This document shows positions 31,299 through 54,163 of a stretch of DNA of 64,000 bases, piece after piece (position 1 is the stretch's first letter; each line of letters opens with the position of its first letter). The translations under genes and the position numbers were made by a program. The stretch covers positions 296,797-360,796 of the forward strand of contig CBDBBK010000001.1 in NCBI GenBank assembly GCA_965202655.1, written 5' to 3'. Source of the stretch: Vicinamibacterales bacterium. GTDB taxonomy: Bacteria > Acidobacteriota > Vicinamibacteria > Vicinamibacterales > UBA8438. The notes under the pieces were generated by a model. That model was not told the DNA's origin. It ran no database searches and saw only the letters and a program-made list of their open reading frames with translations.

Positions 31299-32387
31299 AT
31301 GGCAAGCATGCACACGGCGCTCCGGTTCGTGATCGCCCTCGGCGTTACGGGCGCGGTGGTCGTCTCCGCGGCGGGACAGGACATCCCCCGAACTGCGAGC
31401 GGACGGCCCGACCTGTCCGGCACCTACGACACGGCGACGCTGACACCGCTGCAGCGGCCCGAAGAGTTCGGCGACCGGCTGACGCTGAACGAGGAAGAGG
31501 CTGCCGCAATCGCCTCCGGCGAGCCGGTCGCTCTGGCGGCGGCGTTCGGCATCCCGGCCGAGCGCAACATCGAAGCGGCCCCGCCGACCGAGGCGCCACC
31601 CGTTGGCGGCGACGGATCGACCGGCGCGGCCGGCGGAGTCGGCGGCTACAACACGTTCTGGATGGACCGCGGAACCTCGGCGTTCCAGATCGACGGCCAG
31701 TGGCGCACGTCGATCATCACGGATCCGCCCAACGGCCGGCGGCCGCCCCTCACTCCCGAGGCGCAGGCCGCCGCGGCCGCGTTGGCCGGGTTCTTTCGGC
31801 CCAACACCGGCACCGCCTGGTGGCTCATCGAGAATGGACTCGACGCGCCCGGGCCGTATGACGATCCGGAGATTCGTCCGCTGGCCGAGCGCTGCCTGCT
31901 CGGCTTCGGCTCGACCGCCGGACCGCCGATGCTGCCCGTCCTCTACAACAACCTGAAGCGGATCGTGCAGACCGACGACTACGTGATGATCCTGGTCGAG
32001 ATGGTCCACGATGTGCGGATCGTCCGCATGAACGAGGAGCATGCGCCGTCCGGGATCCGGAACTGGCTGGGGGACTCGGTCGGCCACTGGGAGGGCGACA
32101 CGCTGGTCGTCGACACCACCAATTTCACCGATCAGCCGGCCCTCAGCGGGGCCTCGCGGAACCTCCACGTGGTGGAACGTTTCACGCGGGTCGACGCCGA
32201 TACGCTCCTCTACCAGTTCACCGTGGACGACCCGACCATCTGGGCCGCGCCCTGGAGCGGCGAGTACATCTGGCCGGCCACGAACGACCGGGTCTACGAG
32301 TACGCCTGCCACGAGGCGAACTACTCGTTCCGGGGTATTCTGGGCGGGGCGCGCATCCTGGAGCAGGACGTGCGCGAAGGACGCTAG
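31299..32387 (+). CDS. ACHEGNY-family paralog F, exported
   Basis: ORF 31218..32387 trimmed to ATG 31299 after GGAGGG. MASMHTALRFVIALGVTGAVVVSAAGQ; GRPDLSGTYD; AERCLLGF; VHDVRIVRMN; GDSVGHWEGDTLVVDTTNF; YEYACHEANYSF. Confidence 0.85.
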   Translation: MASMHTALRFVIALGVTGAVVVSAAGQDIPRTASGRPDLSGTYDTATLTPLQRPEEFGDRLTLNEEEAAAIASGEPVALAAAFGIPAERNIEAAPPTEAPPVGGDGSTGAAGGVGGYNTFWMDRGTSAFQIDGQWRTSIITDPPNGRRPPLTPEAQAAAAALAGFFRPNTGTAWWLIENGLDAPGPYDDPEIRPLAERCLLGFGSTAGPPMLPVLYNNLKRIVQTDDYVMILVEMVHDVRIVRMNEEHAPSGIRNWLGDSVGHWEGDTLVVDTTNFTDQPALSGASRNLHVVERFTRVDADTLLYQFTVDDPTIWAAPWSGEYIWPATNDRVYEYACHEANYSFRGILGGARILEQDVREGR

Positions 32388-32417: not shown

Positions 32418-33503
32418 ATGGAGGTGATGATGCTGGGGCGAGCGATCGCGGCGGCAACCGTGCTGGCGTTGGCGGCGCCTGCCGCAATCCAGGCGCAGGA
32501 GATTCCGCGGACGCCCAGTGGTCGGCCCGATCTGTCGGGCACCTACGACATCGCCACGTTGACGCCGCTGCAGCGGCCGGAGCGCTTCGGCGACACCCTG
32601 TCGCTCTCGGAGGAAGAAGCGGCGGCCATCGCGCGGCAGGAGTTCGACCGCAACGCGCAGCGTAACCAGGCGAGCGACCCGAACCGCGAGGCGCCGCCCG
32701 TCGGCGGCGACGGATCGCCGGGCGCCGCCGGCAATGTGGGGGGCTATAACACTTTCTGGATCGACCGCGGCGCCGGCGCATTCCAGATCGACGGCGAGTG
32801 GCGCACGTCGATCATCACCGACCCGGCCAACGGCCGGCAGCCGCCGCGGACCGAGGCGGCGCGGGCGCGGGCAGCCGAGCGGGCCGCGTTCGCCCGGCCG
32901 AACAGCGGGACCGCATGGTGGATGATCGAGAACGGCCTGGACGCTCCCGGTCCCTACGACGATCCGGAGATCCGCCCGCTCGCCGAGCGCTGCCTCCTCG
33001 GCTTCGGCTCGACCGCCGGGCCGCCGATGCTGCCGGTCCTCTACAACAACCTGAAGCGGATCATCCAGACCGACGACTACGTGATGATCCTGGTCGAGAT
33101 GGTGCACGACGCGCGCATCGTCCGGATGAACCAGGAACATGCCCCACCCGGGATCCGGAACTGGCTGGGCGACTCGGTCGGCCACTGGGAAGGCGACACG
33201 CTGGTCATCGACACGACGAACTTCAACGACACGCCGGCGCTGCGGGGCGCGACGCGCGACCTTCACGTGGTGGAGCGCTTCACCCGGCTGGACGCCGACA
33301 CGTTGCTTTATCAGTTCACGGTGGAGGATCCGAACGTCTGGACCGCGCCCTGGAGCGGCGAGTACGTCTGGCCAGCCAGCGACACGCGAGTCTACGAGTA
33401 CGCCTGTCACGAAGCGAACTATTCCTTCCAGGGAATCCTCGGCGGGGCGCGCATCCTGGAGCAGGACGTCCGCGAGGGACGGGTGCCGGATCCGCCACAA
33501 TAG
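32418..33503 (+). CDS. ACHEGNY-family paralog G, exported (tandem duplicate of F)
   Basis: About 80 percent identical to F by eye over the mature protein, for example LAERCLLGFGSTAGPPMLPVLYNNLKRI and RVYEYACHEANYSF. The start could also be ATG 32427 or 32430. Confidence 0.85.
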   Translation: MEVMMLGRAIAAATVLALAAPAAIQAQEIPRTPSGRPDLSGTYDIATLTPLQRPERFGDTLSLSEEEAAAIARQEFDRNAQRNQASDPNREAPPVGGDGSPGAAGNVGGYNTFWIDRGAGAFQIDGEWRTSIITDPANGRQPPRTEAARARAAERAAFARPNSGTAWWMIENGLDAPGPYDDPEIRPLAERCLLGFGSTAGPPMLPVLYNNLKRIIQTDDYVMILVEMVHDARIVRMNQEHAPPGIRNWLGDSVGHWEGDTLVIDTTNFNDTPALRGATRDLHVVERFTRLDADTLLYQFTVEDPNVWTAPWSGEYVWPASDTRVYEYACHEANYSFQGILGGARILEQDVREGRVPDPPQ

Positions 33504-35998: not shown

Positions 35999-36023
35999 GA
36001 TCCCGCGCGAGGAGGGGCGTCAG

Positions 36024-36680
36024 ATGAAAGCCAATCGTCACCGCATTGCCGCGGCCGCCGGGAAGCTCGCGGCCATCATCGTTCTGGCGCCGACGTACGC
36101 CATGACCGCCACCGCACAGGACCGCATGCCGGCGATTCCGGAAGCGGAGTTGACCGAGGCCCAGCGGGCCGCCGTCGAGGAGTTCAAGACCGTCCGCAAC
36201 CGAACCAGCGTCGGCGGCCCGTTCGTTCCCCTGCTTCGGAGCCCGGAAGTAATGAGCCGCGCCCGCAACGTGGGCGACTACGTTCGCTACCAGACGGCGC
36301 TCCCGCCGCGGCTGAGCGAGTTCGTCATCCTGCTCACGGCGCGCCACTGGACGCAACAGTACGAATGGTACGTCCATGCGCCGATCGCCGAACGCGAAGG
36401 GCTCGATCGTTCCATCATCGACGCCGTCGCGGACGGCCGCCGCCCCGGCGCCATGGCGGACGACGAGGGGGCGGTCTACGACTTCGTGACGGAACTGTTC
36501 CGCACGCGGGGAGTCAGCGATCCGACCTACGCCCGCCTCGTCGACCACCTCGGCGAACGCGGCGTCGTCGACACCATCGGCATCATGGGCTACTACCAGC
36601 TCCTCGCCATGATGATGAACACCGCTCGGACCCCGCTTCCGGACGGCGTCGAGCCGGCCCTGCCGGCGTTCCCCCGGTAA
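36024..36680 (+). CDS. Carboxymuconolactone decarboxylase (CMD/AhpD-like) family protein with signal peptide
   Basis: Signal-like N-terminus. FVILLTARHWTQQYEWYVHAPIA and the duplicated CMD-type helices (GVVDTIGIMGYYQLLAMMMN). Confidence 0.7.
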   Translation: MKANRHRIAAAAGKLAAIIVLAPTYAMTATAQDRMPAIPEAELTEAQRAAVEEFKTVRNRTSVGGPFVPLLRSPEVMSRARNVGDYVRYQTALPPRLSEFVILLTARHWTQQYEWYVHAPIAEREGLDRSIIDAVADGRRPGAMADDEGAVYDFVTELFRTRGVSDPTYARLVDHLGERGVVDTIGIMGYYQLLAMMMNTARTPLPDGVEPALPAFPR

Positions 36681-36762
36681 CCAAGATCGCTGTGGACCGT
36701 GCCAACCGATCCGCACGGCGCGCACTCTCATCCGGGGGAGCGATCCGCGAGGACGATTAAGT

Positions 36763-36822
36763 ATAACGGTATGGAAAAACCGATGATTTTGCATTTACAA
36801 CACGACGTGAATCTTGTTTAAT
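36763..36822 (+). promoter_or_regulatory. AT-rich promoter-like module, left copy (-35 TTTACA at 36794-36799, 17-nt spacer, -10 TTTAAT at 36817-36822)
   Basis: This is a local AT-rich island in a GC-rich window. It lies 51 nt upstream of the precursor ATG. An inverted, roughly 75-80 percent identical copy is found at 53834..53900. The shared core is CCGATGATTTTGCATTT(T)ACAA. Confidence 0.55.
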
Positions 36823-36872
36823 AGTTTGTGTAGCTTGAAAGGCTGTTTCGTTCGTTCAAAAGGAGATCATTG

Positions 36873-37139
36873 ATGGCTAAACAGTTTCAGACGTTTGAGG
36901 ACTTCTACGACTACGCCCGAAACAAGGCGGCGGAGGACGAGGAGTTCAGGTCCCGCCTGCTCGCAGATCCCAAGGCGGTGATCGAGGAAGAACTGGACCT
37001 GTCCATTCCGGACGGTCTCGATATCCAGATACACGAGGACACTGCCACGACCTCGCACTTCGTGCTTCCACCCTCGGCCAAGCTCGCCGAAGAGGACATG
37101 CGCGCCGTCGCCGGCGGCGGCTGGTGCTGCCCGGTCTAG
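36873..37139 (+). CDS. NHLP (nitrile hydratase-like leader peptide) family RiPP precursor
   Basis: AGGAG (36861-36865) lies 7 nt before ATG 36873. The product is MAKQFQTFEDFYDYARNKAAEDEEFRSRLLADPKAVIEEELDLSIPDGLDIQIHEDTATTSHFVLPPSAKLAEEDMRAVAGG-GWCCPV. The FxxxLLxxPKAxIExEL...P.G..I...E.T....xxVLPP...L..E....VAGG pattern is the NHLP leader. Confidence 0.85.
   Translation: MAKQFQTFEDFYDYARNKAAEDEEFRSRLLADPKAVIEEELDLSIPDGLDIQIHEDTATTSHFVLPPSAKLAEEDMRAVAGGGWCCPV
37119..37136 (+). other. Predicted core peptide GWCCPV (or WCCPV) after the double-glycine cleavage site
   Basis: The leader ends L(-12)AEED M(-7)RA V(-4)AG(-2)G(-1), matching the hydrophobic -4/-7/-12 spacing of C39-processed double-glycine leaders. 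Only 6 codons remain before TAG at 37137. Confidence 0.6.
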
Positions 37140-37270
37140 CTCCGGCAAGCTGTCTGGCTTGTCTGGTCAGCTCCAGGCGACCGTCCGGCCCCGTCGAGGC
37201 AGGTTGCTGCGGCTGACGGCGATGGGGTCAGGCAACTCGGCACGCGTCTGAGCGACGGGCTCGGGGTTGC

Positions 37271-38323
37271 TTGCGCGTGAGTGACAGCCTGTCCTTCGGG
37301 GGGCTTCTCGGAGGAATGCAGCGGCTGTTCCCGCAGGCCTTGCTGAGTGGAGACGGCCTCGAGCGTCTTCTGGCAGCGGCGGAACGATTGCCGCTTTGCG
37401 TGATCGACAAGCCATTCGGCTTCGAGTTTTCGCTCTGCAACGAAGCGGCTGCCGCGGATTTTTGTGTGATTGCCGCCCCCGGCTCCTCCCTTGCCGCGCA
37501 CTACATCCGTGCAGGCGCGGCAGCGCCGACCGGGTCCGCCGCGTCAGCCCTGGGCGCCTGCCTTGCCGGGAATGCCCGCGACCCCGCTTCCTTTCTTGCC
37601 AGCAGAGACGGCAGCATCATCCTCGAGTACGACGTTCCAGCGCATTGTCGGGAGGCACCGCCACCGCCCGGCATCTTCTTCGTGCCCGGCGACGTTTCGG
37701 TCGATGCCGCAAAGAAACTCCTCGACGATCCGGCCGACACCGTCGCCGCGCTCTGGGCCGCGGCCGGTTTGCGCGCCGACCCTGCGGAGTTGCGCCAGGT
37801 CGAGCGCGTGTCCGAGGTTTTCTCCGACGCCGCGTTGGTCGTCCAGGCGGGCGTGTTGCCGGGGCGGCCACAGCGCGCCGTGCGCCTCGTCGTGCATCGC
37901 ATCGACACCGCCGAGCTTCCCGGCCTGCTCGATCGGCTCCGATGGCCGGGACCTGCCGATACGGCCCTGTCGGTGACAGCGGCGACGAACGACCTGACCT
38001 CGCCCGGCGCCGTACTCAGCCTCGACGTCTCGGCGACCGGCGTCTCGCCGCGGCTCGGGCTGGAGTTGTTCCGGCCGGTGCAGCAGTTTTCCATCGACCG
38101 CACGGGCTGGCTGCCCATGATCGAACGGCTGACGGACAGACGGTGGTGCGTGCCTGCGAAGGCCGAGGGCCTGCGCGCGTGGCCGCGCACCGAACGGGTG
38201 CTCGGCCCCCACGGCGCCTACCGGGTTTACCAGTACATCAACCACGTCAAGGCCGTCGTGGATCATGGTCGCATCGTCGCCAAGGCCTACGTGGCCATGG
38301 TCGTCCGCCAGTTCGGCGGATGA
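37271..38323 (+). CDS. Hypothetical protein, 350 aa, no family recognised (candidate RiPP tailoring or recognition protein)
   Basis: ORF with TTG start at 37271. The start is uncertain; GTG 37277 and ATG 37316 are alternatives. Coding-like composition. It sits between the precursor and the CoA-transferase genes on the same strand. Confidence 0.6.
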   Translation: MRVSDSLSFGGLLGGMQRLFPQALLSGDGLERLLAAAERLPLCVIDKPFGFEFSLCNEAAAADFCVIAAPGSSLAAHYIRAGAAAPTGSAASALGACLAGNARDPASFLASRDGSIILEYDVPAHCREAPPPPGIFFVPGDVSVDAAKKLLDDPADTVAALWAAAGLRADPAELRQVERVSEVFSDAALVVQAGVLPGRPQRAVRLVVHRIDTAELPGLLDRLRWPGPADTALSVTAATNDLTSPGAVLSLDVSATGVSPRLGLELFRPVQQFSIDRTGWLPMIERLTDRRWCVPAKAEGLRAWPRTERVLGPHGAYRVYQYINHVKAVVDHGRIVAKAYVAMVVRQFGG

Positions 38324-38354
38324 GGCGGTGGAGCCGACCAGCGGAGGGTGTGTC

Positions 38355-39569
38355 TTGCCTGCATTGGACGGCCTGAGGATCCTCGACCTGACGCAGTTCG
38401 AGGCCGGTCCTGCTTGCACGCAGGCGCTGGCCTGGCTGGGCGCCGATGTCGTGAAGGTGGAGAAGCCCGGGCGCGGCGACCGGGCCCGCGGCGCGGACAG
38501 CGCCCGCAACGAAGCGTACGCCCCACTGTTCTGCGCCTGGAACGCCAACAAGCGGAGCCTGGCGATCGACATCGGCAGCGAGCAGGGCCACGCACTGTTC
38601 CTGCGCCTCGTGCCGCAGTTCGACGTGCTGGTGGAGAACTTCGGGCCCGGCGTGATGGAGCGGCTCGACATCGACCCTGACGCGCTGCGCCCCGTTGCTC
38701 CGGGGCTGATCTACGCACGCATCAAGGGTTTCGGAAACAGCGGCCCGTACGCCAGCTTCGCGGTCCAGCGGCCGATCGCGCAGGCCGCGGCCGGCGCACT
38801 TTCGATCAACGGACAACCTGACGGCCCCCCGACGATACCCGGCTCGATGGGCGATGCCAGCGCCGGGACGTATGCGGCGGTGGCCGTGCTGGCCGCCTGG
38901 GCGCAGAAGTTACGCACCGGCCGGGGTCAACAGATTGACCTCTCGATGCAGGAGGCCATGACGTTCTTCGTGCGCGGGCGCGGCGCCCTCGGCTCGCGTT
39001 GGGGCGCCCGGGCGGCGCCGCGCAGAGGCAACGCCGGCGACGCGCCGCCGGGCGATCTCTATCCCTGCAAGCCGTTCGGCCCCAATGACTACGTCTATCT
39101 CATGCCGATGACGGAGATCCACTGGGCATCCCTGTGCAGGGCCATGGGCCGACCCGAGCTGCGCACGGACCTGCGCTTCTACAGCATGCCCTGGCGCATC
39201 CAGAACCATCGGGCGCTGCACGCGGAGATCAGCTCCTGGACGAGAGCACGAACCAAGTTCGAGGCGATGGAGACCCTGGGAGCCGCGGGCGTCCCTTGCA
39301 GCCCATGCCTGGACACGACAGAGCTGCTTCGCGACAGGCACCTGGCCGAGCGCGGCTTCATCGAGGAAATGGACCTGCCGGTGCACGGCAAGGTGCGCGT
39401 GCCGGGCTTTGCACCACGCCTGTCCGGATCGCGGGTGCCGGTGAAGCGCCCGCCCCGCCTGGGGGAGCACACCGACGAGCTGCTGCGCGCCGAGCTCGCG
39501 TTGGACGATTCCCAACTCGATGCACTGCGAGAGGCCGGGGTGATCGGCGGCCCGCCGCGATGCGACTGA
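38355..39569 (+). CDS. Family III (CaiB/BaiF-type) CoA-transferase, copy 1
   Basis: ORF 38265..39569 trimmed to TTG 38355, 6 nt after GGAGGG, giving (M)PALDGLRILDLTQFEAGPACTQALAWLGADVVKVEKPGRGD. This parallels the ATG-initiated copy 2. GDASAG carries the putative catalytic Asp. 404 aa. Confidence 0.85.
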   Translation: MPALDGLRILDLTQFEAGPACTQALAWLGADVVKVEKPGRGDRARGADSARNEAYAPLFCAWNANKRSLAIDIGSEQGHALFLRLVPQFDVLVENFGPGVMERLDIDPDALRPVAPGLIYARIKGFGNSGPYASFAVQRPIAQAAAGALSINGQPDGPPTIPGSMGDASAGTYAAVAVLAAWAQKLRTGRGQQIDLSMQEAMTFFVRGRGALGSRWGARAAPRRGNAGDAPPGDLYPCKPFGPNDYVYLMPMTEIHWASLCRAMGRPELRTDLRFYSMPWRIQNHRALHAEISSWTRARTKFEAMETLGAAGVPCSPCLDTTELLRDRHLAERGFIEEMDLPVHGKVRVPGFAPRLSGSRVPVKRPPRLGEHTDELLRAELALDDSQLDALREAGVIGGPPRCD

Positions 39570-39594
39570 CGCGCCGAGTGCCCGGAGGTGCGAG

Positions 39595-40809
39595 ATGCCG
39601 GCATTGGATGGAATGAAAGTCCTCGACATGACCCAGTACGAGGCGGGCCCGTCATGCACGCAGGTGCTGGCGTGGTTCGGGGCGGACGTGGTCAAGATCG
39701 AGTCGCCCGGACGAGGCGACGGCGCCCGCGTGTTCGGCCGCGACGGCTCCAGCGGCTACTCGGCGTTCTTCTGCGCCTGGAACGCGAACAAGCGCAGCCT
39801 GGCGGTGGACCTCGGCCGCCGCCGGGGCCGGGAGTTGCTGCTGCGCCTGATACCGGCGTTCGACGTCTTCGTGGAGAACTACGGTCCCGGCGTGATCGAA
39901 CGGTTCGACCTCGGCTACGAGACGCTTGGCGCCATCAACCCGGGCCTTGTCTACGCCCGCATCAAGGGTTTCGGCGCCAGCGGCCCGGACGCGGGCTACG
40001 ACAGCGTCGACCCGACGGCGCAGGCCGCCGCCGGGGCATTCTCCGTCAACGGCGAGGCGACCGGGCCGCCGCTGATGCCCGGTCCGACGATGGCCGACGC
40101 GGGCTCCGGCCTGCAGGCGGCGCTGGCGGTGCTGGCCGCGTGGACGCAGAAGCAGCGGACCGGTGAAGGGCAGTTCATCGAGTTGTCGATGCAGGAGGCC
40201 GTAACGTACTACCTGCGCTCCCACTTCTTCGGACGCTCGATGAGGCGTGGGCAGGCGGCACCGCGCACCGGCAACAGGGTCGGGCTGCCACCGGCCGGCT
40301 TGTATCCGTGCAAGCCGTTCGGCGCCAACGACTACATCTGTCTCCAACCTCTCACCGAGGGCCACTGGGACGCCCTGTGCCGGGCGATCGACCGCCCCGA
40401 CCTGCGCGCCGATCCGCGCTTCTGCAGCCCGCGCTGGCGCCTGCAGTACGCTGACGCGCTGCGCGAGGAGATCGGCTCCTGGATCCGCGAACGCACCAAG
40501 TACGAGGCGATGGAGACCATCGCCGGCGCCGGCGTGCCCTGTGCGGCGTGTCTGGACACCGTTGACCTGCATAGGGACCGCCACCTGGCCGCGCGCGGCT
40601 TTATCCACGATCTGGATCTGCCGGTGCACGGAAGGGTGCGGATGCTGGGGTTCGCTGCGGGGCCTTCGGCGGCGTGCGCCGCGATGAAGCCCCCGCCCAG
40701 GCTTGGCGAACATACAGGCGAGGTGCTCAACGCGGAGTTGGACCTGAACGACGCGGAAATCGAGGCGCTGCACGACGCCGGCGTCATTCGGGATGCCGCT
40801 CGCCGGTAG
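39595..40809 (+). CDS. Family III (CaiB/BaiF-type) CoA-transferase, copy 2
   Basis: MPALDGMKVLDMTQYEAGPSCTQVLAWFGADVVKIESPGRGD; ADAGSG Asp motif. It is 404 aa, the same length as copy 1, and about 60 percent identical to it by eye. Confidence 0.9.
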   Translation: MPALDGMKVLDMTQYEAGPSCTQVLAWFGADVVKIESPGRGDGARVFGRDGSSGYSAFFCAWNANKRSLAVDLGRRRGRELLLRLIPAFDVFVENYGPGVIERFDLGYETLGAINPGLVYARIKGFGASGPDAGYDSVDPTAQAAAGAFSVNGEATGPPLMPGPTMADAGSGLQAALAVLAAWTQKQRTGEGQFIELSMQEAVTYYLRSHFFGRSMRRGQAAPRTGNRVGLPPAGLYPCKPFGANDYICLQPLTEGHWDALCRAIDRPDLRADPRFCSPRWRLQYADALREEIGSWIRERTKYEAMETIAGAGVPCAACLDTVDLHRDRHLAARGFIHDLDLPVHGRVRMLGFAAGPSAACAAMKPPPRLGEHTGEVLNAELDLNDAEIEALHDAGVIRDAARR

Positions 40810-42127
40810 GCGAACGCCGCGCTTCCGCAAGCTCATGACCTCGTCTCCTCGCCTTTCGCACGACAATCCTCCACCCTCGCACCCGCGCGATTTCGGCGGC
40901 CTCGTCCACGGGGCTCCCGCCAGGAGCGTTCATCCCTCCTCTGCCCGCGAGGTCTCGCTTGCGTTTCGTGCGGCTCGCTCCGACGGGCTCCCTGTCGCGG
41001 TGCGCGGCGCGGGACACTCGCAGTCGGGACACACCGTCCTTCGCGATGGGATGGTCATCGATACTTCACGTCTTTGCGGGGTAACGCTCCATGAGGGGGA
41101 CATCCTCGAAGTCGGCGGCGGCCAGCCGTGGGGCGGCGTCATCGACGCGCTGCACGGGACCGGGTTGACCGTGCCGGTGCTCACCGACAGCGCCTTTCCG
41201 ACCGTGGGCGGAACGTTGTCGGCAGGTGGTTTCGGCACCGCTTCGGTGCGCTTCGGCGCGCAGGTCGGGCACGTCGAGCGCCTCGAAATGGTCACTCCCG
41301 CGGGCGATCTCGTGACGTGTTCACGCGAGGCCGAGCGTGAGCTCTTTGACGCGGTACGCGCTGGACAGGGTCAGTTCGGGGTGATCACCCGGGCGTGGCT
41401 GCGGCTTCGCCGGTGCCCTTCGCGTATTCGCTACTATCGCTTGCGCTACGTCGACATGGATCGTCTCGCCGACGACGTGGAGCGTCTGTATTCGGATCCT
41501 CGCTATGGCCACCTGCGTCTGGAGCTTCGGCCGCATGCGGGCGAAGCGCTGTTTGACATCGGCATCGAGTACGAGCCTCCCGGACCTTCGCCCCTCGAAC
41601 TTCTTTTCGGTCTCGGTTGCGTTCAGGCGCAGTTCTGGACTGACGCCGACGACATCGGCCGCGCCGGCCTCATTCCGGACGATCAGTTTCCGAGGCAGCG
41701 CTTTTATCCCTGGCGCGACTGGTTTCTTCCGTGGAGTGCGCTCCGTCGACTCCTTGCACGTCCGCCCGTGCCCCTCGACCGGCTTCCCGACCCGCCCGGC
41801 TGGACCGGTTGCTTCTTCATCGGCGGCGCGCACATCGATGCGCCTGCGCTCGTACTGCCCCCGGGCGACCGGTTGTTCACGTACTCCGTCCTGCCCATGT
41901 TCGAGCGGCGCGCGGACGCGCTCGAGGCCGCCGCCCGTCTCGACGTTGCCGATCGCGTGATTCGCGATCTCGGCGGTTGCGCTTACGTGTCGGGCGCGAC
42001 CGGCTACGATGCTTCCCGCTGGCGGGCGCATTTCGGGGAGGCGCGCCATGCCCGTCTCGTCCGGCTTCAGCGTGCTGTCGATCCTGCCGGTCTTCTTCGC
42101 CGGCCGGGGCTTCCCTTCTGCGCCTGA
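40793..42127 (+). CDS. FAD-binding PCMH/VAO-type oxidoreductase (cytokinin dehydrogenase-like)
   Basis: VHPSSAREVSLAFRAARSDGLPVAVRGAGHSQSGH (FAD_binding_4-like with a GHS His), TVGGTLSAGGFG, and ELFDAVRAGQGQFGVITRAWLRL. The start is ATG 40793 (17-nt overlap with the upstream gene) or ATG 40835. Confidence 0.8.
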   Translation: MPLAGRRTPRFRKLMTSSPRLSHDNPPPSHPRDFGGLVHGAPARSVHPSSAREVSLAFRAARSDGLPVAVRGAGHSQSGHTVLRDGMVIDTSRLCGVTLHEGDILEVGGGQPWGGVIDALHGTGLTVPVLTDSAFPTVGGTLSAGGFGTASVRFGAQVGHVERLEMVTPAGDLVTCSREAERELFDAVRAGQGQFGVITRAWLRLRRCPSRIRYYRLRYVDMDRLADDVERLYSDPRYGHLRLELRPHAGEALFDIGIEYEPPGPSPLELLFGLGCVQAQFWTDADDIGRAGLIPDDQFPRQRFYPWRDWFLPWSALRRLLARPPVPLDRLPDPPGWTGCFFIGGAHIDAPALVLPPGDRLFTYSVLPMFERRADALEAAARLDVADRVIRDLGGCAYVSGATGYDASRWRAHFGEARHARLVRLQRAVDPAGLLRRPGLPFCA

Positions 42128-43350
42128 GCGGGGCGTTGGACGGGCTTCTGCGCGAGAGCGGCGTCGACGAGCTCGCGGAGGGAACGTGCCTGGAGTTTTA
42201 CCCGGGCGGCGCGCAGCTCGGAAATTGGAACGGGAGGACCACCCCAGGCCACGCCCCGGCGCAGTGTGACAATCACGGAGCGCCACCAACTGTAGACGAT
42301 GACCGCACTGGCCACCGGAAGCGCCAGTCCGGTCCACCACCGGAAGCGGGAGGCTCGGGCGATGTAGATGGCGACCCCCCAGGCAGTCACTGCAGAAGCA
42401 GCGAACAACGCGGCGGCCGCAGCGTCCACGGCAGCCAGGGCGGCGCCCAGCACGACCGGTGCAATCCCCATCCACAGCAATCCGACCGTCTGCACCAGCA
42501 CGGCCGAAATCCGGTAGTCCTGGAGGGCGAAGAAATTGTTCGCCGTTCCGTGGACCAGGTCCCGGACGGACTGATACCACTCGCATCGCACCCCGGATTG
42601 GGCGCGGAGCAGGTCCGAGCAGCGGCCGGTCAACTTCACCAGTCGACCCAGTTGACGGGCCTCGTCGGGGCGCAGGGCGACCTGCCTGTGTCCCCCGATG
42701 GCGTGGTAGGAATCCGCCCGGAACAGGTTGCAGGCGCCGCTCCCGAAGGAGGCCGTGCTCCCGGAGTCGCGAACCTGCCAGAGCCTCCCCGTGACGTGCG
42801 CGCCCCAATGGAACACGATCACGCAGGCTTCCAGCATGGGCCCCGGCATCGTCAACGTGGCCAGAACGGCGACATGGTCCAGCTTGTTTCTCAGGAGGTG
42901 GCGCACCCCGCGCCTCACCGCCTCCTGCCCGAACACCACGTCCCCATCGGTAAAGAGGAGCACGTCCCCGCTCGCAGCCAGCGCGCCGCGCCAGCAGGCG
43001 TGGTTCTTCCCGAACCATCCCGCGGGCAACTTCTCGATGTGAATCACCTTGAGACGGTCGTCCCGCTCGCTCAGCCGATCCGCGATCTCGCCGGTGCGGT
43101 CGTCGGAACGGTCATCGACGAAGATGACCTCGTAGTCCGGGTAGTCGAGGACGAGCAGCGATGCGAGCGCCCGTTCCACCCGGAGATCCTCGTTCCGGGC
43201 AGCCACCACCACCGACAGCCGGGGAAACGGCGGATCTTCGTCGCTGCGTTCCCCGATCTCTTCGAGACTGAAGACGTGCTGGTAGCTGTAGAGGGTGATG
43301 AGCGCCATGGCCACCCAGATGACCAGTGTCACGGCGGCGATGATGAGCAT
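42067..43350 (-). CDS. Integral-membrane family 2 glycosyltransferase (CrtQ/hopanoid-associated GT-like)
   Basis: N-terminal TM segment, LSVVVAARNE, VIFVDDRSDDRT and FTDGDVVF (DxD-type), then several C-terminal TM segments. Its 3' end overlaps the convergent flavoprotein gene by 61 nt. Confidence 0.8.
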   Translation of the reverse strand: MLIIAAVTLVIWVAMALITLYSYQHVFSLEEIGERSDEDPPFPRLSVVVAARNEDLRVERALASLLVLDYPDYEVIFVDDRSDDRTGEIADRLSERDDRLKVIHIEKLPAGWFGKNHACWRGALAASGDVLLFTDGDVVFGQEAVRRGVRHLLRNKLDHVAVLATLTMPGPMLEACVIVFHWGAHVTGRLWQVRDSGSTASFGSGACNLFRADSYHAIGGHRQVALRPDEARQLGRLVKLTGRCSDLLRAQSGVRCEWYQSVRDLVHGTANNFFALQDYRISAVLVQTVGLLWMGIAPVVLGAALAAVDAAAAALFAASAVTAWGVAIYIARASRFRWWTGLALPVASAVIVYSWWRSVIVTLRRGVAWGGPPVPISELRAARVKLQARSLRELVDAALAQKPVQRPAQAQKGSPGRRRRPAGSTAR

Positions 43351-43427
43351 GGTGGTGAATGTCGTCCGCGCTTCTCCTCACCCGGCGCCATGTGGGGCAG
43401 AAGCGTCGGCGTGGGGCGCTCGCGCCC

Positions 43428-46394
43428 TCAAGTCAACTGGCGGCTCGCCAGGTCGCGGAAAATGCCCGGCGTCTCGATCAGTTGTGCAAAGGTCCCTTGC
43501 TGCGCCACCCGGCCCTCGTCGAGCACGTAGATGCGGTCCACGTTGCGGATTGTGGACAGCCGGTGCGCGATGACGATGCGGGTGACGGCTAGTTCCTCGA
43601 TTCGCTCCATGATCGTCGCCTGCGTGTCGTTGTCGAGCCAACTGGTGGCCTCGTCGAGCAGCAGCACGCGCGGACTCCGCACCAGGGCTGCAGCCAGCAT
43701 GATGCGCTGGACCTGCCCGCCTGAGAACACCGCCGAGTTCTCGGTGATGACGGTGAACATGCCCATCGGCATCGACCTGATGTCGCGGTCGACCGCGGCA
43801 AGGCGGGCGGCGCGCCAGGCGTCGTCCAGCGTCAGGTCCGTTGCTATGCCGATGATGTTGTCGCAAACCGTCCGGGGTCGCAACGAGCTGTCTTGCGTCA
43901 CCACGCCGACCTGTTGAGTCAGGGCGCGGCGGTTGATGCGGTCGAGATCGTGGCCGTCGTAGTACACGACGCCGGACGACGGCTTCTCGAGTCCAAGGAT
44001 AATGCGCAGCATGGTGCTCTTGCCGGCGCCGGAACCGCCGACCAGGGCAACGAACTCGCCGGGCTGCACATCGATGGAAACATCGCGCAGCACCGGAGGG
44101 CCTCCCTCGGTATAGCGGAAACTGACCCTGTCCAGGCGTACGCCGCCGCGCAACTCCGGCAGGAGGGCGTCCCCGGCGGTGCTCTTCGGCGCCGCTTCGA
44201 GGATCGGAGAAACCTGTTCGACGGCCGGTACGATGGCCGCCACACCGGACATGGAGTGGCCGAGCGCGGTAATCGCCGACATGAAGACCATGTAGGCCGC
44301 GTAGACGGTCAGGAAGGCGCCTGCGGACAGTGCGGCGGGACCCATTTCGACGGCCACGGCGAAAAGCGCGGCGGTAGCCAGCAGTGGCGCTGCGGCCGTG
44401 AACGCGACCAGGTGTTCGTGCAGGGCGCCGACCTTCATCGCGCTGCGCGTCTGTTCCCGGTAGTCTCGCGCCCACCGTGTGAATGCCGTCCATTCCTTCC
44501 CGGCGGCGCGCAGTTTGTGCGCGGCGCCGATCAACTGCAGCAGGACGCCGGCGAGCGAGCGCTGCGCGGCGACCAGCCGTCGGTGATGAGGTACTTGCCG
44601 TGCGCCTAGCGTGATGGTCACGGCCAGCGCGACAAGGCCGCCTGCAAGACCCAGCCACCCCATCGCGACGTCGTAGACGAACAGCAGGACGAACGTTGGT
44701 AGCAGGAAAACGGTCGACAGCAGAGCCCCCATGACGACGCCCGACACCTGATCGCGCAGGCCCTGGAACGCCATGGCGCGCATTGCCAGGTCGCCGGACG
44801 TGAAGTCGCGGAAGAAGGCTGCTGGCAGGTCCAGCAGGCGGTCCCACAACGCCGCCGTGATGCGCGCGGTGACGCGACCCTCCAGACGCATCAGGGCCGT
44901 GCCTTCACGCACCTGGAGCAAGGCCGCCGCCAGCGCCAGCAACAGCATCCCCGCCGTCAGCCAGGCCAGCATGTCCACGCGCCCCGCCGGCGCCACCTCG
45001 TCGGCGAAGACGCCAAGCAGGACCGCGGGAACGAGCATGGCGAGACCGGACAGCAGTCCAGCCGTTACGAACCTGAACACGTCGCCTTTCCACCGGCGGA
45101 ACGCGACCCGGACCAGGTCGCGGGCGCCCGACGTCCGACCAGGAGGTAACGACTGATAGAAGAAGATCGCATTCGAGCGCAGCAGGGCGGCCCTACCGGC
45201 ATTGACAGGCTGTGCCCGTCCCGTTGTCGGGTCCACCATGCGGTAGCGCCCGAAGCGGCCCGGAAGCAGGGCGATCGGCGCGCCGTCCTCGCGCCGGAAC
45301 GCCAGCATCGAGCCGCTGTCGCCAAGCCACCAGCGATCGCTTGCGCGGAGCGCGACCTCGCGGCCGCGTACTCCAGACGCGGTCAGAATACGACCCAGGG
45401 ATTGACCGGTCTCGGGGTCATTCTGGCTGCCCTGTGGGGCAGGCAGCGTCTGGAACCGAATGCCCTCGTGGCGCCCAACCAGGACCAGCGCCGCCTGCAG
45501 GGCGCCGCCGCTCGATTTCGGCCGGGAGCCGCGCGCGTCGTTTACGTCAAAAAGTCTTCGGCGCGCTGCATCTTCGCTTTCCCGGCGATATCGCGTTTGC
45601 GCGGCGCGCAGGTTCGCCGCATCGGCCAACAACAGGCGGCGGTTGAGGTCGTCGGCGGCTAGCGCCAAGCGCTGGAATTCGGCCAGCGCCGCCAAGAGGC
45701 GCCCCGCGCGATGCAACTCCCGAGAGGAAGCGCCCTGCAGCCGGGTCGGGTTGGAAACGCTGACCCAACTGCCGGGCGCCATGGGCACGAAGCCGGAGTC
45801 GGTCCGGCCAGGCTCCTCGGTGCCGAGGAATGCGAGGCCGCCATCCCTGCTTGACGTCCAGACGACGCCGCGCTTGGCGGAAACGACCGCGCCAGGATCC
45901 AAGTCCACCGTGGCGCCGGCGGAAAGAAAACACTCGGTGTGCGGCCGATGCGTCACGTCCAGAGCTACGGTGGCCGAGATTTCGGCGATCCAGAGATCCA
46001 CCTGATCGACGACGGCGCCGCCCTCGTCCGCCGCCAGGAGGTCGTCGCGCGACACGCGCCGCAGTTCGGAATCGGACAGCCCCTTCGCGACAAGCGCGTT
46101 CGGCCCTTCTGCAGTCGGGAATAGGAGACGGCCGCGCGCCGCGCGAAGGAGGTGCTTGAACTCAACGAATTCGCCGTCCTGCTCGCGCGCCACGAACACG
46201 TTCACCGAACCGCGGGCGATGAACCACAGGGCATCGGGATCGTCGAGGCGAACGGGCCGGTTGCCACCGCCCGCGAACGGCGTGCCGTGCGCCAGGGCGA
46301 AGTTCGCCAGCCATTCGGCGGCAGCGTCAACTGCGGCGTCCGAGACCCGCAAGCCGGTGGGAACGTGCTTCCGTCCGGGGGCTTCCGCCATCAC
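43428..46394 (-). CDS. NHLP-type bacteriocin export ABC transporter, permease/ATPase subunit with a long N-terminal extension (possible cNMP-binding-like domain)
   Basis: 988 aa. The N-terminal ~300 aa include LWFIARGSVNVFVAREQDGEFVEFKHL, which looks jelly-roll-like. A 6-TM block follows, then Walker A GGSGAGKST, signature FSGGQVQR and LLLDEAT. GTG 46394 or ATG 46391 abuts the TAG of the upstream gene. Confidence 0.85.
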   Translation of the reverse strand: MMAEAPGRKHVPTGLRVSDAAVDAAAEWLANFALAHGTPFAGGGNRPVRLDDPDALWFIARGSVNVFVAREQDGEFVEFKHLLRAARGRLLFPTAEGPNALVAKGLSDSELRRVSRDDLLAADEGGAVVDQVDLWIAEISATVALDVTHRPHTECFLSAGATVDLDPGAVVSAKRGVVWTSSRDGGLAFLGTEEPGRTDSGFVPMAPGSWVSVSNPTRLQGASSRELHRAGRLLAALAEFQRLALAADDLNRRLLLADAANLRAAQTRYRRESEDAARRRLFDVNDARGSRPKSSGGALQAALVLVGRHEGIRFQTLPAPQGSQNDPETGQSLGRILTASGVRGREVALRASDRWWLGDSGSMLAFRREDGAPIALLPGRFGRYRMVDPTTGRAQPVNAGRAALLRSNAIFFYQSLPPGRTSGARDLVRVAFRRWKGDVFRFVTAGLLSGLAMLVPAVLLGVFADEVAPAGRVDMLAWLTAGMLLLALAAALLQVREGTALMRLEGRVTARITAALWDRLLDLPAAFFRDFTSGDLAMRAMAFQGLRDQVSGVVMGALLSTVFLLPTFVLLFVYDVAMGWLGLAGGLVALAVTITLGARQVPHHRRLVAAQRSLAGVLLQLIGAAHKLRAAGKEWTAFTRWARDYREQTRSAMKVGALHEHLVAFTAAAPLLATAALFAVAVEMGPAALSAGAFLTVYAAYMVFMSAITALGHSMSGVAAIVPAVEQVSPILEAAPKSTAGDALLPELRGGVRLDRVSFRYTEGGPPVLRDVSIDVQPGEFVALVGGSGAGKSTMLRIILGLEKPSSGVVYYDGHDLDRINRRALTQQVGVVTQDSSLRPRTVCDNIIGIATDLTLDDAWRAARLAAVDRDIRSMPMGMFTVITENSAVFSGGQVQRIMLAAALVRSPRVLLLDEATSWLDNDTQATIMERIEELAVTRIVIAHRLSTIRNVDRIYVLDEGRVAQQGTFAQLIETPGIFRDLASRQLT

Positions 46395-48586
46395 TACTCG
46401 GCCTCCATCAGTCGACGGTACAGGCCGTCGTCATCTTCCATCAGTTCCTGATGGGTGCCGCGCTGGGCTTCCCGACCGCGGTCGAGCACGACGATCAGAT
46501 CGCTGTCCCGGATCGTGCTCAGGCGATGGGCGATGATCAGGCAGGTGATGCCGCGGCTGCGCAAGGCATCGTCGATACGCAGCTCGGCGATCGGATCGAG
46601 AGCGCAGGTGGCCTCGTCGAGAATCAGAACGGTTGGATTCGACACCAGCGCCCTGGCGATTTCGAGGCGCTGCTGCTGGCCGCCGCTGAAGTTGCGCCCA
46701 CCCTCCAGTACGGGAGCGTCGTAACCCCGGGGCAGGGCGGTGATCTCCGCATGGATGTCGGCATCCCTGGCCGCGGCCACTAAGTCCTGATCCGGCGTTT
46801 CCCGATCCCACATGGTCAGGTTGTCGCGCACCGAGCCGGCGAACAGGAAGATGTGCTGGTCGACAAGCGATACCGAGTCCGTCAGAAGATCGCGCGGCAC
46901 CTCGGCGAGGGCCTGACCGTCGAACAGGATCTCGCCGGACCAGGGCCGATGGGTTCCCGTCACCAGAGACACCAGCGTGGACTTCCCCGAACCACTCGGC
47001 CCGACGACGGCTACGCGCTGGCCGGGTTCGACGACCAGACTGAAGTCCTTGACCAGGGGTTCCCCGGTGTTCTTGTAGCCGAACGTCACGTTCCGCAACT
47101 CCACCCGTCCTGTCAGTCGCAACCGCTTGGCGAACGCCGGCGGCCGTTCGGCCAGCTCTTCGTCGCACTTGGCCAGGACGGCGTCCTCTGGCGCGTCGAA
47201 GACATCGTCGAGGCGCTGCAGGTGGCCCTCGAGCACCTGGAACAGGTCCGCGAACTGCACGAACCGCCCGATCGGCAGCAGGAAACTCGCCGCCAACACG
47301 TAAAAGGCCATCATCGCACCCAGCGTCATGTCGCCCGACATCACGCGCACGCCACCCAGGCCGAGCACGGCGGCGTTGCCGGTGATCAGGAACAGACCCG
47401 GCAGCGCCGCAATCACGTGGCCAAGCTCGGTGAAGCGCTGTCGGGCCAGCAGCTCGCGGGCCTGATAGCCGGTGAAGTGGACGAAGAAATCGTTCTCGCC
47501 AGCTATCGCCTGCAGCCTGTCGATGGAGCGCAATCCACTCATCCCGGCCCCCTGCATGTTGCCGGCCTCGCGCTGCAGTAGGCGGTTCTCCTCGATCCGC
47601 GAGCGGGTCACCGCTCGGGTCAGAAGAGCGCTCGCCGCACCCAGTGCGACCACTACCCCGGCCAGCAGCGGGTCGTAAACGATCATCAGCACCACGAACA
47701 GGAGGCTGGTGACCAGTTCGATGCCGACACCCGCGAACTGGCCCGTCGCCACGGCGGCGACTTCGTTGATGGACTGCATCCTCGCGGTCAGATCTCCGGC
47801 GTAGCGGTGGGCGAAGAACTCCGTGCGTAACCGGAAGAGGTGAGTGATGAAGTAGTCGGCACGACCAAGCGAAAGCCGCACCGAGAGCAGGCGCAGGCAG
47901 CGCTCCCGCAGCCACGTGAGCAGGTAGACAAGCCCGGCCGCTACCGTCGCGCCGATGACCAGCCCCCCGCCCCACGAGGGCTCTCGACCGCTCAGCACGT
48001 AGTCTACGAACACGTTGAGCAACAGCGGCAAGGCCAGCGCCGTCAACGACAGCAGCAACCCGCAGGTGGACGCGAAGGCAAGAGGCGCCTTGCCTTCCCG
48101 CAACCAGGGCCAGAGCCGGCGCAAGACGCCAGGCCTGCGTCCACCCGGCTCGAAGTCCGCGCCCGGCTCGAAACTCACGGCCACGCCGGTGAACCGCTTG
48201 CCGAACTCGTCCTCGTCGACCGTCCTGCGTCCACCGTTGGGATCGTTGATGTAGTAGCGGCCGCGCGCATAGCCCTCCAGCACCAGGAAATGGCCGAAGT
48301 CCCAGAACAGGATGAGCGGCATGGGCATGGCATGGAGCTGATGGGGCTCCCTGCGCCAGCCTTGCGGTTCGAGGCCGAAGTGCCTGGCGGCTCGCAAGAG
48401 GTCGACGCCGTCGCAGCCGTCGCGAGTCACGTCGCAGACCGCGCGCAGGTCTTCTATCGGCACCCAGCGGCCAAAGAACGCGAGCACGATGCCGAGGCTG
48501 ATCGCGCCGCACTCGGCGGCGTCGTTCTGCAGCAGCGTCGGCGTGCGCACGCGGCCCCGGCGTTTGGGGTTGACCGCGAAACCCAT
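46394..48586 (-). CDS. NHLP-type bacteriocin export ABC transporter with N-terminal C39 peptidase domain
   Basis: ORF 46394..48754 trimmed to ATG 48586, which shares one nucleotide with the HlyD stop. C39 motifs: QNDAAECGAISLGIVL (Cys), GHFLVLEGY (His), YINDPNGG (Asp). TM block; GPSGSGKST; FSGGQQQR; ILILDEAT. Confidence 0.9.
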   Translation of the reverse strand: MGFAVNPKRRGRVRTPTLLQNDAAECGAISLGIVLAFFGRWVPIEDLRAVCDVTRDGCDGVDLLRAARHFGLEPQGWRREPHQLHAMPMPLILFWDFGHFLVLEGYARGRYYINDPNGGRRTVDEDEFGKRFTGVAVSFEPGADFEPGGRRPGVLRRLWPWLREGKAPLAFASTCGLLLSLTALALPLLLNVFVDYVLSGREPSWGGGLVIGATVAAGLVYLLTWLRERCLRLLSVRLSLGRADYFITHLFRLRTEFFAHRYAGDLTARMQSINEVAAVATGQFAGVGIELVTSLLFVVLMIVYDPLLAGVVVALGAASALLTRAVTRSRIEENRLLQREAGNMQGAGMSGLRSIDRLQAIAGENDFFVHFTGYQARELLARQRFTELGHVIAALPGLFLITGNAAVLGLGGVRVMSGDMTLGAMMAFYVLAASFLLPIGRFVQFADLFQVLEGHLQRLDDVFDAPEDAVLAKCDEELAERPPAFAKRLRLTGRVELRNVTFGYKNTGEPLVKDFSLVVEPGQRVAVVGPSGSGKSTLVSLVTGTHRPWSGEILFDGQALAEVPRDLLTDSVSLVDQHIFLFAGSVRDNLTMWDRETPDQDLVAAARDADIHAEITALPRGYDAPVLEGGRNFSGGQQQRLEIARALVSNPTVLILDEATCALDPIAELRIDDALRSRGITCLIIAHRLSTIRDSDLIVVLDRGREAQRGTHQELMEDDDGLYRRLMEAE

Positions 48587-49404: not shown

Positions 49405-49414
49405 GGGTCGATCC

Positions 49415-52615: not shown

Positions 52616-52630
52616 GTCGCCAAATCACCT

Positions 52631-53812
52631 TCATCGACCCACGGCCATTGATTGGGCCGGCTCGCGGTACTCGCGACGGTATTCGCCGAACGAAATCAAC
52701 TTGCCGCGCCGCTCGTCCCAGAGCGCCAGAGGCAGTGCCTTCAACGCTTGCAACAACGTGATTCGGTGGGCGGACCACAGTGTCGGATTCTCGTCGTGAC
52801 AGCGCTGCAGGCGGTAGTTCGGAATGCGGGTGCTCAGATGGTGCACGTGGTGCAGACCGATACTGGCGGTCAGCCACTGCAGCGGTTTCGGGAGTGCGAG
52901 CCAGGATGAGCCTCGCAACCCGGCCTCGAAGAAGTCCCACTCGCCCGACCGGCGCCAGTAGGCGTCCTCGAACTGGTGCTGCGCGTGGTTGATCACGCCG
53001 GAGAACGCGCCTGCATACACCGCGATCATGCCTTGGATGATCACGACCTGCACGAGACTTTCAATCCCGGCGACAAGCCAGATGCCCACCAGCACCGCCG
53101 CCAGGGCGGCGTTGGTCCACCATACGGAGCGCCATTCCCGCGCCCAGGAAAGCGGTGCGGACGCGGGAAAACGGTTCACGAACAGGAACTGCGCCGGAAC
53201 CAGAACGCCGATCATCCAGGGGTTCCGTTGCAAGCGATACGCAAGCCGGCGCCACCATCCCAGTGCGCGGTACTCGGCGACCGTGAGCGTCGGGAGGTCA
53301 CTGCCCAACGGCTTGTCCAGGTTGCCGGAGTGGGCGTGGTGCTCTACGTGAATCCTTTTCGCGTAGTCGTAGGGCGTCAGGGCCACGCCCGCGACTACCC
53401 TGCCGACAACGTCGCACACCCGCTGCGACGTGAAGTACGAGTGGTGGCTGCAGTCATGCTGAATGATGATCAGCCGCACCATCAGACCCGCTGCTGGCAG
53501 CGCGACAATCGCCGTCAGCCAGTAGCCGACGTCCGCGCTCCGGAGCAGAACGGTCCACGCGACGCCGTACAATGCCAGGGTGACCGCCAGTTGCAGCAGA
53601 CTGCGACGGTTGTCCGGCCGCTCGTACGGCGCCAGAATGGATCTCGCACGTTCCTGCGAGATCGCGTTGCGGAGCAGCGTCTCAAGGGCGCCCGGTATCG
53701 CGTCAGCAGACTTGCCGGTCACCCCATCGCCTCCGCGACTCTTGAGCAAGTCCTTGCGGTCGAGTCGGATTCTGTCGGCAGCCGGTCTGGCGCATGTTTC
53801 GTCGGTCCGCAA
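52631..53812 (-). CDS. Membrane fatty-acid desaturase family protein
   Basis: His boxes HDCSHH, HVEHHAHSGN and HHVHH. The ORF starts at TTG 53812, but in-frame GTG 53722, which lies 7 nt after GGAGG, is a better-supported start. Confidence 0.8.
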   Translation of the reverse strand: MRTDETCARPAADRIRLDRKDLLKSRGGDGVTGKSADAIPGALETLLRNAISQERARSILAPYERPDNRRSLLQLAVTLALYGVAWTVLLRSADVGYWLTAIVALPAAGLMVRLIIIQHDCSHHSYFTSQRVCDVVGRVVAGVALTPYDYAKRIHVEHHAHSGNLDKPLGSDLPTLTVAEYRALGWWRRLAYRLQRNPWMIGVLVPAQFLFVNRFPASAPLSWAREWRSVWWTNAALAAVLVGIWLVAGIESLVQVVIIQGMIAVYAGAFSGVINHAQHQFEDAYWRRSGEWDFFEAGLRGSSWLALPKPLQWLTASIGLHHVHHLSTRIPNYRLQRCHDENPTLWSAHRITLLQALKALPLALWDERRGKLISFGEYRREYREPAQSMAVGR

Positions 53813-53833
53813 TCTGCACTAGAGCATTTTACA

Positions 53834-53900
53834 ATTAACCAAGATCGCGTCGTACTTGTAAAATGCAAAATCATCGGCTTCTAGATACCAATTTCGTTAT
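53834..53900 (-). promoter_or_regulatory. AT-rich promoter-like module, right copy in inverted orientation (-35 TTTACA = plus 53857-53862, 17-nt spacer, -10 GTTAAT = plus 53834-53839)
   Basis: The reverse complement reads ATAACGAAATTGGTATCTAGAAGCCGATGATTTTGCATTTTACAAGTACGACGCGATCTTGGTTAAT. This aligns with 36763-36822 (ATAACGGTATGGAAAAACCGATGATTTTGCATTTACAACACGACGTGAATCTTGTTTAAT). It lies directly upstream of the desaturase-led minus-strand operon. Confidence 0.55.
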
Positions 53901-54004
53901 GACTCCACGCATGGCAGCTTCCTGGAATCGGCTGTTTCCGGCCCACGAATTCGCCGAGGAACTCGCAAAGACTCGCTTGGAAGTGCGGATCCGAGTGTAA
54001 GTGA

Positions 54005-54163
54005 CCCGCTAACCCGCGCGCCGGCGTCGACGACCGGGTCGGCTCCATCGAAGTCGGCAAGGACGCCGATCTCGTGCTCTACGACGGCGATCCGTTCGAG
54101 TACACCAGCCACGTCTGCGGCGTGGTGATCGAGTCGGAGGTGGTCTCGCGCGAATGCCGGTAG
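54005..54163 (+). pseudogene. 3' remnant (52 codons) of an amidohydrolase-family gene
   Basis: My translation in the frame ending at TAG 54161-54163 gives PANPRAGVDDRVGSIEVGKDADLVLYDGDPFEYTSHVCGVVIESEVVSRECR. GSIEVGKDADLVL...DP is the typical C-terminal segment of metal-dependent amidohydrolases. An in-frame TGA lies at 54002, and there is no start codon or upstream body. Confidence 0.7.

Follow-up and report, generated by a model that had tools for sequence, protein, structure and literature searches.

The 64,000-nt stretch of DNA analysed here, referred to as the window, contains a 17-kb RiPP cluster of the NHLP type that is composed of two convergent operons. The cluster is bracketed by two inverted copies of an AT-rich, promoter-like module of about 65 bp, one ahead of each operon. 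The operon on the plus strand (36873-42127) has five genes with precursor and tailoring functions. These encode, in order, the precursor, a 335-aa protein that belongs to no family, two family-III CoA-transferases and a FAD-binding oxidoreductase. The precursor gene (36873..37139, +) encodes an NHLP-leader peptide of 88 aa that matches TIGR03793 above the cut-off (6e-17). The operon on the minus strand runs from 53722 down to 42067 and has six genes for a desaturase, an RND pump and ABC/C39 export. The first is a DesA-like fatty-acid desaturase (52631..53722, -; PF00487), and it is followed by an AcrB-type RND pump, a short HlyD-like adaptor of the NHLP secretion family, a C39-peptidase ABC exporter, a second NHLP-type ABC protein and a GT2 glycosyltransferase. 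The desaturase gene starts with GTG at 53722, 7 nt after a GGAGG, and this start agrees with its homologues. All genes between the two copies but one have been assigned a RiPP-type function. The exception is the gene of the 335-aa protein, which is kept beside the precursor in related loci.

The part of the precursor that follows the double-glycine is very short (AVAGG/GWCCPV), and about 40 precursor homologues (P0241-P0283) keep a C-terminal WC(S/C/N/T)P(V/I) motif. The cluster, with its two CoA-transferase III genes, FAD oxidase, GT2, desaturase, RND and C39-ABC genes, recurs in many Acidobacteria contigs with its gene order shuffled. A literature search found no description of this WCxP(V/I) NHLP cluster. 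GC3 is 0.80-0.85 in the cluster (36000-54000) and 0.87-0.93 in most of the flanking genes, a mild difference that is consistent with a separate history of the cluster.

To the left, the neighbour of the cluster is a CMD-like gene of 218 aa. Farther left are two adjacent paralogues of unknown function (31589-32383 and 32687-33481) with about 84% nucleotide identity, as seen in cross-matches of strain L001. On the right there is an amidohydrolase remnant, followed by a PQQ dehydrogenase gene. The remnant (54005..54163, +) is a C-terminal piece of 52 codons that matches PF01979 positions 299-323 of 345 (E = 5e-6) and has an in-frame stop upstream. Located 105 nt outside the right copy of the module, it is a rearrangement scar at the border of the cluster.

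A Pfam scan, which took in the cluster genes and the large majority of the window's remaining predicted genes, detected no DNA-binding or response regulator, no sigma factor and no transposase, integrase or recombinase. A reading of the window made from its sequence only, hereafter the sequence-only reading, had stated that no regulator gene lies inside the locus; none is detectable by Pfam, either there or among the scanned genes of the window. A search of the whole cluster against Rfam gave nothing relevant.

Two copies of an AT-rich module

The left copy of the module (36763..36825, +) lies upstream of the NHLP precursor gene, at -48 to -110 of its start. The right copy (53831..53900, -) lies upstream of the desaturase and the export operon, at -109 to -178 of the desaturase start. 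The sequence-only reading had placed inverted copies of such a module at the heads of both operons, each facing into its own operon. The left (36763-36822) and right (53834-53900) sequences that it quoted are both present, the orientation is correct, and the duplication is confirmed by a shared 17-mer and by the identity of 49 of the 60 aligned columns (82%).

The exact 17-mer, CCGATGATTTTGCATTT, is found at 36780-36796 (+) and 53861-53877 (-). The two sites are inverted relative to each other, and a search tolerating 3 mismatches found no third one in the 64-kb window. By chance 0.03 matches are expected, and none of 100 shuffles contained two. Local alignment of the two upstream regions gave a score of 59, compared with 16.5 +/- 2.0 (maximum 24) in 300 shuffles. 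The 17-mer count and the alignment score rule out chance similarity, and the paired copies are a real duplicated sequence. The consensus of the alignment is GGTAT..CCGATGATTTTGCA(T)TTTACAA..ACGACG..ATCTTG.TTAAT.GT. Its conserved core, CCGATGATTTTGCATTT-ACAA in the left copy (36780..36800, +) and CCGATGATTTTGCATTTTACAA in the right (53856..53877, -), includes the -35-like hexamer together with about 15 nt on its upstream side. This perfect core is internal to the module. Conservation is lowest in the outer 20-25 nt, where a 6-nt indel shifts a further ATAAC present upstream in both copies. The sequence-only reading let the similarity stop at about the -10 element; it runs about 3 nt past the inner ends given there (TTAATAGT / TTAATTGT).

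Is the perfect core more than would be left in any decaying duplicate? Under uniform decay of an 80%-identical duplicate, a perfect run of 17 nt has a probability that we estimate at about 0.1, and 17 identical bases are not clearly above this expectation.

The mean GC content of the window is 68.3%. Windows of 60 nt with less than 45% GC occur only at 36737-36925 and 53802-53921, and the modules are thus the only markedly AT-rich stretches, as had been noticed from the sequence. Exact scans with the 21-22-nt core pattern covered 185,579 species genomes and a metagenome collection. Each scan gave one match, in DNA of low GC content (43% and 31% GC), and because there is no similarity beyond the pattern both are chance matches. 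The genome that the window comes from is evidently in neither of these two collections. The module has no match in plasmid and phage collections.

Promoter-like features and further repeats

The best sigma-70-like pair in the left region is TTTACA-17-TTTAAT (10/12), made up of a -35-like hexamer at 36794..36799 (+) with 5/6 matches to TTGACA and a -10-like hexamer at 36817-36822 (+). In the right region it is TTTACA-17-GTTAAT (9/12), with hexamers at 53857..53862 (-; again 5/6) and 53839-53834 (-). Both copies have a 17-nt spacer, whose length is kept in the gapped alignment by an insertion and a deletion of 1 nt each that cancel. Both -10 hexamers have a T at position 2 where the critical A (-11) is expected, and because of this T a stricter consensus scan omits both of them. 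The A is present in the alternative registers TAATAG (36819-36824, +) and TAATTG (53837-53832, -), in which the T at position 6 is absent and a 19-nt spacer is needed. The end of the -10 is 50 nt from the start codon of the precursor and 111 nt from that of the desaturase. By consensus scoring, the hexamer pairs of the modules beat any candidate upstream of the same genes in related loci. The layout had been described as near-consensus sigma70, which holds for the choice of hexamers and the 17-nt spacer but overstates a -10 that lacks A-11. A literature search for promoter rules in Acidobacteria gave nothing relevant. The consensus sequences of sigma-54, sigma-28, the Fur box and IHF were compared by eye, with no convincing match.

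The strongest conservation is in the 17-mer and not in the proposed -10, which is also the element without A-11. Both observations would suit a module in which the 17-mer is read by an alternative sigma factor and the stretch down to TTAAT is a shared transcribed leader. This is distinctly improbable. Inspection by hand revealed no convincing sigma-54 (GG-N10-GC) or sigma-28 layout, the TTTACA-17-TTAAT geometry is held by compensating indels, and there is no sigma factor gene nearby.

The module regions contain further repeats. A 13-mer, TAACCAAGATCGC, at 36678-36690 (+) is a third, partial copy that overlaps the stop codon of the CMD-like gene. It is identical to 53836-53848, the -10 part of the right module, and the two sites are in direct orientation. 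The left site is 73 nt outside the left module and carries a C-to-T SNP in strain L001. The right copy alone has an inverted repeat (53824-53837 / 53853-53866; 13/14, with 15 nt between the arms) that spans from the -35 to just past the -10 and holds the perfect 11-mer GCATTTTACAA. One of its arms is partly outside the shared module. Its chance expectation is about 0.01 by our estimate, and its DNA fold has a z-score of only -1.2. An element of the TAACCAAGAT type occurs three times in the two module regions, including the exact 13-mer outside the left copy. At one mismatch or fewer TAACSAAGAT has four matches in the 64 kb, and three of the four are in the two module regions. Simple copying of a promoter does not account for the third copy of the 13-mer or for the right-hand palindrome. 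RNA and DNA folds of the module regions were no better than those of shuffled sequences. There is also a GC-rich inverted repeat of 11 nt, CGTTCCCCCGG / CCGGGGGAGCG (36667-36677 / 36732-36742; 10/11, 54-nt loop), at the 3' end of the CMD-like gene and directly upstream of the left module. Since it is not followed by a T-run, it is not a classical terminator.

These repeats bear on whether the core acts mainly as an operator. A transcription factor encoded at an unlinked site might bind CCGATGATTTTGCATTT(T)ACAA and switch both operons within a wider regulon, and perhaps it would also bind the GCATTTTACAA palindrome and the TAACCAAGAT repeats. The perfect core is set in flanks of about 75% identity and, judged from its position at about -50 to -30, it is where class II activators and many repressors bind. 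The 13/14 inverted repeat of the right copy brackets the -35 to +1 region, the TAACSAAGAT matches cluster at the modules, and shared boxes before biosynthesis and export operons are familiar from bacteriocin loci. Nevertheless, no regulator gene was found in the locus or the window, the motif is conserved in no relative and no further genomic copy was found. In addition, the left copy has no palindrome, the core and the -35 are 1 nt farther apart in one copy than in the other, and the run of 17 matches is not clearly above chance in an 80%-identical duplicate. We regard a chiefly operator role as unlikely, while granting it some weight.

Related loci and the borders of the cluster

Ten related Acidobacteria loci were fetched through homologues of the ABC, desaturase and precursor genes. 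The ABC is 94% identical in L005 and 86%, 89%, 77% and 69% identical in L006, L007, L008 and L009, respectively; the desaturase is 91% identical in L011, and the precursor 93% in L012 and 89% in L013-L016. All relatives with enough sequence have the same gene set, with variation in gene order and flanks. The flanks are DUF420/UbiA and NamZ/beta-lactamase in L005-L007 and others in L008, L009, L011 and L013. The desaturase/RND unit and the precursor gene are divergently arranged in L013.

Several additional genes were seen in these loci. The head of the export operon in L008 (3495-5873) has a hybrid histidine kinase/response regulator with Trans_reg_C and a group II intron reverse transcriptase, that of L013 (3564-4261) a FitA/PIN toxin-antitoxin pair, and L011 has a phage-integrase fragment (7671-7847) near its desaturase.

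Is the module shared by these relatives? The 17-mer core is absent from L005-L009 and L011-L016, even at 4 mismatches. L005-L007 have two promoter regions of their own that show no mutual similarity in local alignment (scores at shuffle level), and the modules of the window resemble the promoter regions of none of the relatives. Because the related loci lack the core, the module is, by this comparison, specific to this species or lineage. Its absence from the relatives therefore leaves no phylogenetic footprint for an operator and no conservation support for function. Three strains of the window's own species (L001-L003; 98-99.4% nucleotide identity) have an invariant left copy. This invariance is without statistical weight, because at a divergence of 0.6-2% about one SNP is expected in 60 nt. 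For the right copy, look-ups of the window's desaturase with V or M as first residue gave no record from another strain.

The 5'UTRs, however, are kept across the relatives. On the precursor side the conserved blocks are TGTGTAGC and CGTTTCGTTC; the left TAATAG is 2 nt before TGTGTAGC, and TACTTA has the same placing in L007. On the desaturase side there is a conserved leader of about 90 nt (53723..53811, -) with 73-83% identity to L005, L006, L007 and L011, and in all five sequences the block TCCGAYTCGACC is 46-48 nt before the desaturase start. The leader is non-coding, because frame and ATG are not kept: an upstream ORF was rejected since L006 has no ATG and L005 has another frame. The leader has no Rfam match and no covariation support, and it might pair with the GGAGG ribosome-binding site. 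Nucleotide homology to the relatives ends about 5-20 nt from the inner ends of the modules (about 20 nt inside the right one). Since the homology of the 5'UTRs reaches the inner ends of the modules, no other promoter space is left. The modules fill the stretch directly upstream of the shared 5'UTR blocks, and this, together with the spacer kept at 17 nt by the cancelling indels, is some support for their being promoters.

At the equivalent positions the relatives have candidate sites of their own that are weaker, richer in GC and below consensus thresholds: TTGCGC-N17-TAnnnn on the precursor side and a conserved GACTTGCGC..GATGATGTGCAAAGCT block on the desaturase side. Hand alignments that derived the core from the relatives' GATGATGTGCAAAGCT block and the left -10 from their ATCTGTGTTAC were dropped, as local alignment was at shuffle level in both cases.

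Could such AT-rich, lineage-specific DNA be something other than a promoter? The modules might be non-functional, a scar of transfer or recombination, or else the target of a nucleoid-associated silencer, and the cluster would then be silent or transcribed from other sites. The high-GC window has no other AT-rich DNA, the modules are confined to this lineage, and a rearrangement scar is present beside the right copy. However, two independent scars would not share 82% identity, a facing at promoter distance and a 17-nt spacing of hexamers, and upstream of the conserved 5'UTRs there is no space for an alternative promoter. We consider this reading very improbable.

A further alternative was that the copies are terminal inverted repeats. 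The modules would then be such repeats, or flanking IS or MITE remnants, of a non-autonomous unit formed by the 17-kb cluster, and promoter activity would be a by-product. Much at the borders invites this reading: the inverted copies bracket the cluster exactly, the flanks of the cluster differ between genomes (CMD-like and PQQ dehydrogenase in the window), and nucleotide homology to the relatives ends at the modules. The truncated amidohydrolase gene outside the right copy, the integrase fragment near the desaturase of L011, a cluster GC3 slightly below that of the flanks and the recurrence of a module 13-mer outside the left copy can be counted with these. However, there is no target-site duplication; the outer flanks end in GATTAAGT on the left and begin with GACTCCAC on the right, and CGATTAAGT and GACTCCACG at the same borders have nothing in common. 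No transposase, integrase or recombinase is present in the cluster or among the scanned genes of the 64 kb. Conservation is best inside each copy, 17-38 nt from its outer end, and poor at the ends. Instead of flanking the native promoters on the outside, the modules take their place. Scans with the 21-22-nt core pattern detected no further copy in the window, the species genomes or the metagenomes, and plasmid and phage collections gave no match. Candidate short terminal repeats (9/10) are at chance level, with about one expected per 300 nt by our estimate. The lack of a target-site duplication, transposase and terminal conservation weakens the terminal-repeat alternative of the sequence-only reading, while the differing flanks and the truncated gene speak for it, and we judge it improbable.

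A MITE in the left region, 143 bp from ACCAAGAT to ATCTTGTT and bordered by TA on each side, was also considered and rejected: chance alone would give a 9/10 inverted repeat in 300 nt, and a matching second end is missing at the right locus. Finally, the modules might be the ends of an undescribed non-autonomous cassette that moves the whole 17-kb RiPP cluster with its own inward-facing promoters. Such a cassette would explain the varied genomic contexts of this cluster family in Acidobacteria, although it is very improbable.

Proposed promoter reuse and its known counterparts

The explanation that we prefer, with a probability only a little above one half (about 0.55), is that the modules are paralogous promoter regions that arose by promoter reuse inside one gene cluster. 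The native promoters of both convergent operons would have been replaced in this Acidobacterium lineage, either through the copying of one promoter over the other or through the introduction of both from a common source. The replacement would supply a -35 (TTTACA), a 17-nt spacer, a TTAAT-type -10 and about 35 nt of A/T-rich DNA upstream. This upstream part could be an UP-like element, a binding site overlapping the -35, or both. Transcription of the two operons would then begin at equivalent promoters and react in the same way to factors acting on that sequence, so that expression of the precursor and tailoring genes would be coupled to export and promoter strength equalised. The duplication, its placing and orientation at the promoter positions, its confinement to this lineage and the lack of mobile-element hallmarks are observed directly, whereas we infer promoter activity, the direction of copying and any regulator.

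If the modules are indeed promoters, they are a clean natural case of promoter reuse in a secondary-metabolite cluster of a high-GC, uncultured Acidobacterium, in which precursor and tailoring genes and export and lipid-modifying genes have been rewired to the same AT-rich promoter. The modules of about 65 bp are the parts to keep or to replace for heterologous expression of this widespread WCxP(V/I) NHLP cluster. The 17-mer can be used as a probe for a possible regulon in a complete genome.

The modules can be compared with several known systems. They are like a sigma-70 promoter with an UP element in their TTTACA, 17-nt spacer and A/T-rich -40 to -60 region (GGAAAAA, GATGATTTT), and differ from it in a -10 that lacks A-11. 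Shared boxes are found before the structural and transport operons of bacteriocin and lantibiotic loci, such as the nis-box, the spa-box and LytTR direct repeats. These are short repeats that related loci share and that are bound by a response regulator whose gene is in the locus itself. The modules likewise have one motif upstream of and overlapping the -35 of the precursor and export operons, from which coordinated expression is expected. Unlike those boxes, they are in a locus without a regulator, are not conserved in relatives and have no direct repeats; it is a whole promoter that has been duplicated.

Outward promoters can also be carried by IS elements and MITEs, as in the Correia elements of Neisseria and the hybrid promoters at IS ends. 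The likeness here is that a short AT-rich module provides hexamers beside genes, in inverted copies and with broken synteny in the flanks. The modules differ in the lack of a target-site duplication and of a transposase; neither copy has convincing terminal repeats of its own, and only two copies are known.

Putative mobile promoters have been surveyed as sequences of more than 50 nt with at least 80% identity that occur within one genome beside non-homologous downstream and upstream genes (Matus-Garcia, Nijveen & van Passel 2012, PMC3488235). Two-member families were the commonest class in that survey, which used a 50-150-nt frame and found a mean identity of 92% between pairs (PMC3488235). 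With 60 aligned columns at 82% identity, the module pair is within this definition. Its downstream genes (NHLP precursor and desaturase) are non-homologous, as are its upstream genes (CMD-like on one side, amidohydrolase remnant and PQQ dehydrogenase on the other). It differs from the surveyed pairs in that the right module, 112-180 nt from the start codon, is partly outside the 50-150-nt frame and its 82% identity is below their mean of 92%. It also differs in that its copies are inverted and are both in one biosynthetic cluster, where they head the convergent operons. In all, the locus looks like ordinary, lineage-specific promoter reuse and not like a new class of element or mechanism.
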